This document shows, in pieces, positions 63,439-63,816 of a stretch of DNA of 64,000 nucleotides. Each line of letters begins with the position of its first letter. The stretch's first letter is position 1. The stretch lies in the NCBI RefSeq assembly GCF_054482525.1, contig NZ_CM137006.1. One strand, given 5' to 3'. A program made the translations under genes and the position numbers. The notes beneath the pieces are model-generated. The model did not search any database and was not told the DNA's origin. It saw only the letters and a program-made list of their open reading frames with translations.

Positions 63439-63816
63439 CTATCGTTTTGTCCGATGCTTGCGAATAAAAGCATTCAAAATGTCGCCTTCACCATGCATGA
63501 CAGAAAAAGAATATTCACATTCTTTCTTTATCAAGATTCCACATAATTCCTTGTGCAAATCAACATTAACTCCCTTTCCTTTCTGCGCTTTCTTCACACC
63601 GAGCTCACATGAACTGATTAATTCAACGGTACAGGGTTTCTTCAGATAATTCACACCATCAATTAAGCCCTGGAGAATGCATCTATTTGCGGTCGTATCA
63701 CTGTAGGAGAAAGTCAGATATTTTATTTTTCCTTCGTATTCCAACACAACCTCCGCCGAACCTTCACGTGTTGCAGCATCACAACCTCCTGTTGAATATA
63801 TTTTTACCATCTTCAT
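63439..63816 (-). CDS. small RNase HI-like protein with substituted catalytic residues
   Basis: 125-aa ORF; collinear with E. coli RNase HI (VKIYSTGGC vs VEIFTDGSC; TTANRCIL vs TTNNRMEL; ELISSCEL vs ILSTDSQY; GVNVDLHKEL vs KNVDLWQRL), but the Asp/Glu/Asp carboxylate positions read Thr/Ile/Ser. Confidence 0.55.
   Translation of the reverse strand: MKMVKIYSTGGCDAATREGSAEVVLEYEGKIKYLTFSYSDTTANRCILQGLIDGVNYLKKPCTVELISSCELGVKKAQKGKGVNVDLHKELCGILIKKECEYSFSVMHGEGDILNAFIRKHRTKR

Follow-up and report, generated by a model that had tools for sequence, protein, structure and literature searches.

The locus described here raises two linked questions: whether a 125-aa protein that aligns with RNase HI of Escherichia coli (RnhA) can still act as a nuclease, and whether it serves the phage defence gene beside which it is encoded. 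The DNA analysed was a stretch of 64,000 nucleotides (the window) from E. coli, which proved 100% identical to PCN033 over each of the stretches compared (63300-64000, mkoC and 62600-64000). The open reading frame in question, termed RNHL, occupies 63439..63816 on the minus strand and commences with an ATG codon, some 10 nt upstream of which lies a GGGGA Shine-Dalgarno-like motif. It is preceded on the same strand by a 68-bp spacer (63817..63884) containing this ribosome-binding-like motif, and by the 3' end of an HNH_2 endonuclease gene (63885..64000), of which the last ~38 codons fall within the window and the 259-aa product continues beyond it. Downstream, likewise on the minus strand, lie mkoC (59598..63113), coding for a 1171-aa type II Mokosh protein with an SF1 helicase and a C-terminal PLD nuclease, and an Mrr_cat restriction-endonuclease-like gene (58481..59470; PADLOC candidate PDC-S02), the final gene of an HNH-RNHL-MkoC-Mrr block. 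PADLOC identified the product of 59598-63113 as MkoC with E = 0, residues 1-1169 corresponding to model positions 1-1135.

On the coding strand of PCN033 the order is HNH gene, 68-bp gap, RNHL, 325-bp gap, a 1171-aa 'AAA domain' protein (mkoC) and the restriction-endonuclease-like gene, followed by a TIR pseudogene and then a type I restriction-modification system. The block sits there within a CP4-like integrative element together with a CbtA/YeeU toxin-antitoxin pair, antirestriction and RadC genes, and RNHL and mkoC both lie within a defence island. Scanning of 62900-64000 for promoter and terminator consensus sequences gave no excess over shuffled expectation and no evident RNHL promoter, and an Rfam scan of 58000-64000 returned no match.

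Sequence and Predicted Fold of RNHL

RNHL was matched by the Pfam RNase_H model (E 7.3e-5) and by the NCBIfam RNase HI model NF001236 (E 3.1e-11), the latter aligning residues 1-69 with model positions 2-70 and scoring 43 bits where the curated cut-off is 160, with the match confined to those residues. BLASTP against RnhA gave 27% identity (E 2e-11), and a phmmer search of the PDB returned exclusively RNase HI chains, with residues 1-68 placed without a gap on 2-69. The residue-by-residue correspondence with E. coli RNase HI claimed in the preliminary description was thereby borne out by BLASTP and phmmer alike, RNHL being gapless through b1-aA-b4 on RnhA residues 2-70, and both of the sequence blocks named there, TTxNR (DTTANRC in RNHL, RTTNNRM in RnhA) and NVDL, were found in the BLASTP and MAFFT alignments. 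The GSC and PCxV motifs are also shared with RnhA (EC 3.1.26.4; PF00075, NF001236), as are the fold and the order of strands and helices. Thereafter RNHL carries a deletion of 15-16 residues, such that E. coli residues ~72-88, comprising helices B and C plus half of the basic protrusion and including Trp81, Trp85, Gln72 and Gln76, are missing, and a basic protrusion of the E. coli type is not present.

Structure prediction and comparison with RNase HI, proposed at the outset as a check, gave a concordant result. The AlphaFold model of RNHL, for which 44 family sequences served as input, had a pLDDT of 91.9 and the order b1-b2-b3-aA-b4-(short helix)-aD-b5-aE, in which the short helix replaces B and C, while the top PDB matches to this model in Foldseek were E. 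coli RNase HI (E 9e-12; TM 0.73-0.78). As judged from its sequence and from the predicted model, RNHL is a true RNase HI homologue with an RNase H fold, in which helices flank a sheet of five strands.

Catalytic and Substrate-Contacting Residues

The metal ligands of RNase HI are Asp10, Glu48, Asp70 and Asp134 (PMC8900815, PMC9719913). The replacement of the first three by Thr, Ile and Ser, as noted when the frame was first described, was confirmed by BLASTP, HMMER and MAFFT, which concur in placing Thr9, Ile47 and Ser69 of RNHL at these positions; in addition, the fourth carboxylate, Asp134, aligns with Asn115, with the result that all four are replaced. The two positions to either side of Thr9 and of Ile47 are free of acidic residues, and Glu71, two residues past Ser69, is conserved in only ~10% of the family. 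Retention of the carboxylates at shifted positions, the objection anticipated in the preliminary description, was not seen at any column of the family alignment: a conserved substitute carboxylate was sought in every one and none was found, the best acidic columns being D/E86 (78%; corresponding to Asp102 of RNase HI) and D/E53. Nor does a conserved histidine stand in for His124 of RnhA, as the residue aligned with it, RNHL His108, is shared by only ~5% of the family. We infer that RNHL is unable to cleave RNA, and its sequence predicts that RNase H activity is absent.

A useful comparison is provided by RNase HI of Halobacterium sp. NRC-1, which like RNHL is without the basic protrusion and the catalytic-site histidine, but is nevertheless active, whereas the RNHL family is without any catalytic residue (PMC9719913).

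The substrate-contacting face has been affected unevenly. In E. coli RNase HI, contact with DNA is made at two sites, marked by Thr43 and Trp85 (PMC4005664); the first of these is retained (Thr43/Asn100 equivalents) while the other (Trp85, helix C) is deleted. More generally, residues equivalent to Thr43, Asn45, Arg46, Asn100 and Asp102 are preserved in the family together with a Lys-rich KGKGxN loop, and some Pantoea members have Lys in place of RNHL Asn44, the equivalent of E. coli Asn45. Positions of RNA contact are lost in RNHL, Asn44 of RnhA having become Ala and Gln72 and Gln76 having been deleted. Because these positions and the Trp85 site have gone, specificity for hybrids may have gone with them, and the conserved face could bind protein instead.

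Distribution and Conservation of the Family

A full HMMER scan of 1.84 billion representative proteins recovered 259 representatives at E<=1e-3, 65 of them at E<=1e-10. In 114 aligned domains all three catalytic positions are non-acidic, position 9 being variable, position 47 mostly Ile and position 69 Ala or Ser; the canonical D/E/D combination occurred in only seven of the HMMER hits, all of them weak-scoring. An RNase HI fold without catalytic carboxylates is consequently supported family-wide, and the loss throughout the family points to a stable, selected state rather than a recent accident.

Conservation is concentrated at G50 (99%), N84 and T/S42 (98% each), G19 and G73 (92% each), P61 (89%) and N44 (88%). 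The domains are basic, with a median pI of 9.1 and a net charge of +5 (95% exceed pI 7.5), and a Lys/Arg-rich loop, K-x-x-K-G-K-G-x-N, is found at the site of the RNase HI protrusion loop. The family was defined here by a domain of ~120 aa with the motif GSC..TR.G...LEY...KY....DTTANRCI.G.I..V..LK.PC.V.L....G....KGKG.N.DL, by three non-acidic catalytic positions and by deletion of helices B and C. The copy in the window conforms to this definition, possessing G10, C12, R17, G19, T41, T42, N44, R45, G50, P61, G73, K81, G82, N84 and D86, and is almost certainly a member of a dead family derived from RNase HI.

The exact RNHL protein occurs on at least 1000 public contigs, full 125-aa alleles are present in E. 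coli, K. pneumoniae, Citrobacter, Enterobacter and Leclercia, and the family as a whole is conserved across phyla. Fusion to a GIY-YIG domain was identified in one member and to a DnaG-type zinc finger in another, and the domain is also found in tandem, two copies to a protein. Of four fusion proteins scanned with Pfam, three (P0022, P0048 and P0074) yielded no additional domain. A scan of genome contigs yielded three family loci only, a number that does not permit statistics.

No Pfam, PHROG or PADLOC model is dedicated to the family, PHROGs offering just the generic RNase H family phrog_531, and literature searches produced no paper on the family or its accession. Relatives were not encountered in two pattern scans of IMG/VR viral contigs, and the hits obtained with tblastn in a phage collection were all distant (~30% identity or partial), with RNase H as the annotation of those that had one; from these two results the family appears to be rare in or absent from phages. 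In UniProt and JGI some members are called 'Ribonuclease HI', in RefSeq sometimes 'ribonuclease H family protein', and otherwise 'hypothetical'; since the catalytic residues are all absent, the enzyme name 'Ribonuclease HI' is unjustified and the label should go. The RNHL family is an uncharacterised, single-domain pseudo-RNase HI of ~120 aa descended from bacterial RNase HI.

Genomic Settings of Family Members

Family members reside on plasmids of Pantoea, Klebsiella, other Enterobacteriaceae and Pseudomonas, and their surroundings are nearly always plasmid backbones or else islands in which toxin-antitoxin, restriction, integrase and UmuDC genes abound. Immediately upstream, in the same orientation, there may be a gene for a Nuc-type PLD nuclease (two plasmids), a DUF1173 protein, a T5orf172 protein or a Zn-ribbon/IscA-like protein, or an unknown gene. 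With neighbourhoods as heterogeneous as this, no single partner or pathway emerges.

The clearest conserved linkage of the family is to the repB-iteron replicon of Pantoea plasmids, on which repB, coding for an iteron-type initiator, is followed by iterons in both orientations and then by an RNHL gene on the same strand. This order has been kept even though the RepB proteins are at 50% identity, the RNHL proteins at 51-52% and the iterons are wholly different. The replicons concerned (L027:5350-6810, L041:2480-3935 and L042:2340-3925) are P1/F-like, with four to five iterons of 21-22 bp upstream of repB and a second, bidirectional array between repB and the RNHL gene.

A member from a Desulfosporosinus MAG (L014:4526-8375) has an extra N-terminal domain of ~145 aa and lies 190 bp downstream of a gene for a 947-aa protein with a Zn-ribbon and a Walker A motif (GAGAGKTT), UvrD-like helicase by eye, with an HNH_2 homologue 5 kb upstream. 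A helicase-type gene is here encountered in the vicinity of the family for a second time, which may be coincidence.

Proposed Role of RNHL

The best explanation of the locus, and one that is considered probable, is that RNHL is an intact member of its family, serving mobile elements as a non-catalytic binder of nucleic acid and independently of Mokosh. That function is suggested by the combination of a dead RNase H fold, a basic surface, one remaining DNA-contact site, conservation within the family and residence on mobile elements. Taken alone, the proposition that RNHL binds nucleic acid on behalf of the element that carries it is put at somewhat less than an even chance. Binding, whether to an RNA:DNA hybrid or to another duplex, would involve that half of the RNase HI substrate face which has been retained, and the protein would then act stoichiometrically, by occupancy, to the benefit of the carrier element. 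The likeliest form of such action would be to hold on to hybrids such as primers or R-loops, or to screen them from hybrid-sensing systems or host RNase HI, and for this the plasmid-replicon position and the DnaG zinc-finger fusion provide support.

A more elaborate version, which must be rated as doubtful, is that a natural dead RNase HI clamps RNA:DNA hybrids uncut, thereby protecting primers or R-loops at plasmid replication and establishment or hiding hybrids from immunity, and in addition tunes the firing of the flanking nucleases in the HNH-RNHL-MkoC-Mrr block. If true, RNHL would be the first bacterial pseudo-RNase H existing as a protein in its own right for which a role in mobile element-host conflict had been defined.

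The HNH_2 Gene as a Possible Companion

Among alternatives, the one that survives best, though still unlikely, is that RNHL is the partner of the upstream HNH_2 protein. The pair would constitute a module of two genes, with the dead RNase H fold directing the nuclease to its target, holding it back or switching it on, for instance on hybrid-containing DNA. A spacer of 68 bp separates the two genes, which share a strand and are always found together in E. coli, where full-length HNH was detected in 140 genomes and RNHL in 141, and the intact K. pneumoniae copy of RNHL is likewise preceded by HNH_2. Moreover, where the HNH gene is missing, as in the common Klebsiella cassette, RNHL has acquired a nonsense codon, and where it is disrupted by an IS element, as at L006, RNHL is frameshifted, so that RNHL is a pseudogene in both; this association, however, is drawn from two lineages only. 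Elsewhere in the family the gene immediately upstream may be a T5orf172 or PLD gene, and a GIY-YIG fusion occurs in one member, but no HNH neighbour was seen in the other lineages, the plasmid PLD neighbour has an apparent N-terminal signal peptide (by eye) and is likely to be a secreted Nuc, and other upstream genes (an IscA-like protein with a Zn ribbon, unknown genes, repB) are non-nuclease. A general rule of a nuclease immediately upstream was also entertained and then downgraded, as the PLD neighbour looks secreted and several of the upstream genes do not code for nucleases.

Relationship to mkoC and Type II Mokosh

The preliminary description correctly placed the frame upstream of the helicase-PLD gene on the same strand, the gap to the mkoC start codon at 63113 being 325 bp where 326 had been given, and went on to suggest that RNHL might be a sensor, decoy or regulatory partner in that module. 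Type II Mokosh (MkoC) is defined as a single gene, and three Mokosh systems tested in E. coli are reported to have given phage defence (Millman et al. 2022; bioRxiv 10.1101/2022.05.11.491447).

Of 5426 complete E. coli genomes, 888 (~16%) carry mkoC at 95-99% identity, while the stretch with RNHL was found in 142. When a query spanning the mkoC 5' end, RNHL and the end of the HNH gene (62600-64000) was compared with complete E. coli genomes, 879 were matched, of which 141 were matched at full length and the remaining ~738 (~84%) carried mkoC without RNHL. Co-occurrence with the helicase-PLD gene, which had been put forward as a check, was accordingly observed at 141 of ~879-888 E. coli mkoC loci. 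In the genomes lacking RNHL the match ended at query position 616-660, that is 102-146 bp upstream of the mkoC start, a break in homology which indicates that mkoC has a short upstream region of its own with RNHL outside it. The proximal region (63114..63259, minus strand; 102-146 bp) is thus common to ~740 E. coli genomes with mkoC and without RNHL and presumably holds the promoter and leader of mkoC itself, while the distal part of the intergenic sequence (63260..63438, no strand assigned) is found only in genomes with the HNH-RNHL insert. At the two RNHL-less loci inspected, from an ST131 strain and strain E92 (L023 and L024), a lone mkoC stands beside the tyrosine integrase of an island with unrelated sequence beyond, the ST131 locus adjoining tRNA-Phe. 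The window copy of RNHL would, on the preferred reading of a Mokosh-independent binder, have arrived as part of a two-gene HNH-RNHL insert ahead of an mkoC that is sufficient by itself and is served by an upstream region of its own.

The common Klebsiella cassette consists of RNHL-mkoC-Mrr without HNH, homology with E. coli starting ~40-45 bp upstream of the RNHL start. Its RNHL gene (L007-L012, ~9932-10309) has a GTG start and TGA at codon 10, for which reason gene callers give an N-terminally truncated protein of 102 aa (cluster P0003, hundreds of contigs), while mkoC retains its full 1171 aa and Mrr is intact. Between E. coli and Klebsiella the dN/dS of mkoC was 0.076, indicative of strong purifying selection; that of RNHL was 0.39, a value derived from just 15 substitutions (6 synonymous, 9 non-synonymous), which suggests that the RNHL sequence is weakly constrained in this clade. 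In ~15 other contexts examined, family members had no MkoC neighbour.

These data leave little of the proposed dedicated role in the helicase-PLD module: mkoC is a single-gene system, ~84% of mkoC-bearing E. coli are without RNHL, homology ends before RNHL is reached, the Klebsiella cassette combines a nonsense RNHL with an intact mkoC, and the family persists in contexts without MkoC. An obligate role of RNHL in Mokosh is largely refuted, and it is very probable that RNHL is not an obligate component. What could be proposed instead is that RNHL is a conditional accessory, a sensor, decoy or regulator of MkoC which might, for example, mask host RNA:DNA hybrids against autoimmunity. The same-strand position of RNHL 325 bp upstream of mkoC is consistent with this, as is the conservation of the HNH-RNHL-MkoC-Mrr block, which is mobile between chromosomal locations in E. 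coli and K. pneumoniae and contains every intact copy of RNHL observed in these two species. However, the one-gene definition of type II Mokosh, the near-identical mkoC without RNHL in ~738 of 879 genomes, the stop at codon 10 of RNHL beside a constrained Klebsiella mkoC, the lack of an adjoining MkoC in the other lineages examined and the lack of a PADLOC model match to RNHL combine to make it improbable. A lineage-specific functional tie of RNHL to the block is conceivable.

Locus L013 was at one stage regarded as an independent lineage with a divergent MkoC (~50% identity by tblastn); a blastn comparison led to this being rejected, L013 proving to be the same cassette, 91.8% identical as DNA and with numerous indels in a noisy assembly.

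Hardly to be favoured either is the view that RNHL is a hitch-hiking remnant on its way out, with no current function in this Enterobacteriaceae clade, to which the relaxed dN/dS of 0.39, the common nonsense and frameshift alleles and the failure of the consensus scan to reveal a promoter of its own would lend themselves, but which is opposed by a full-length window copy keeping every family-conserved residue, by intact 125-aa alleles in five Enterobacteriaceae groups with the exact protein on at least 1000 contigs, and by conservation of the family across phyla.

Comparison with Known Systems and Significance

RNase H folds that lack catalysis are familiar as binding or scaffold surfaces, examples being the connection subdomain of HIV-1 RT, the RNase H-like domain of Prp8 and the D210N RNase H1 probe for R-loops. 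These are domains of large proteins or laboratory mutants, whereas RNHL is free-standing, is found on plasmids and islands, and derives from bacterial RNase HI; it also differs from RnhA in being carried on mobile elements, RnhA being the product of a housekeeping gene. From type II Mokosh, its same-strand neighbour in the same defence island, it is distinguished by being missing from most mkoC loci and a pseudogene at others, Mokosh itself consisting of one gene.

Pseudoenzymes are common; what is encountered here is an uncharacterised pseudo-RNase HI family, conserved, free-standing and present on plasmids, and it furnishes a clean example of a pseudoenzyme from a housekeeping nuclease that plasmids and islands have kept. 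Should RNA:DNA hybrids prove to be what RNHL binds, the protein would parallel in nature the dead RNase H probes deployed in R-loop mapping, and might show how mobile elements handle hybrids in replication or immune evasion. For defence annotation, the result guards against adding RNHL to Mokosh by adjacency alone.

Sequences Flanking the Block

The start of the Mrr-like gene varies with the method of gene calling. Its longest frame is of 387 aa from a GTG at 59644 (58481-59644) and overlaps the mkoC 3' end by 47 bp, the RefSeq product is of 329 aa from ~59470, and other gene calls give 335-371 aa. Past this gene, at L001:4437-6997 (~55736-58296 of the window by offset), lie a type I restriction-modification system with two adjoining M-subunit genes and a frameshifted TIR-domain pseudogene. 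At the opposite end, just past the end of the window and upstream of the HNH gene, a sequence of ~150 bp (L001:13574-13727) has ~91% identity to the tRNA-Leu region of most E. coli chromosomes, and looks from its sequence like the remnant of an island attachment site marking the junction beside the HNH gene.
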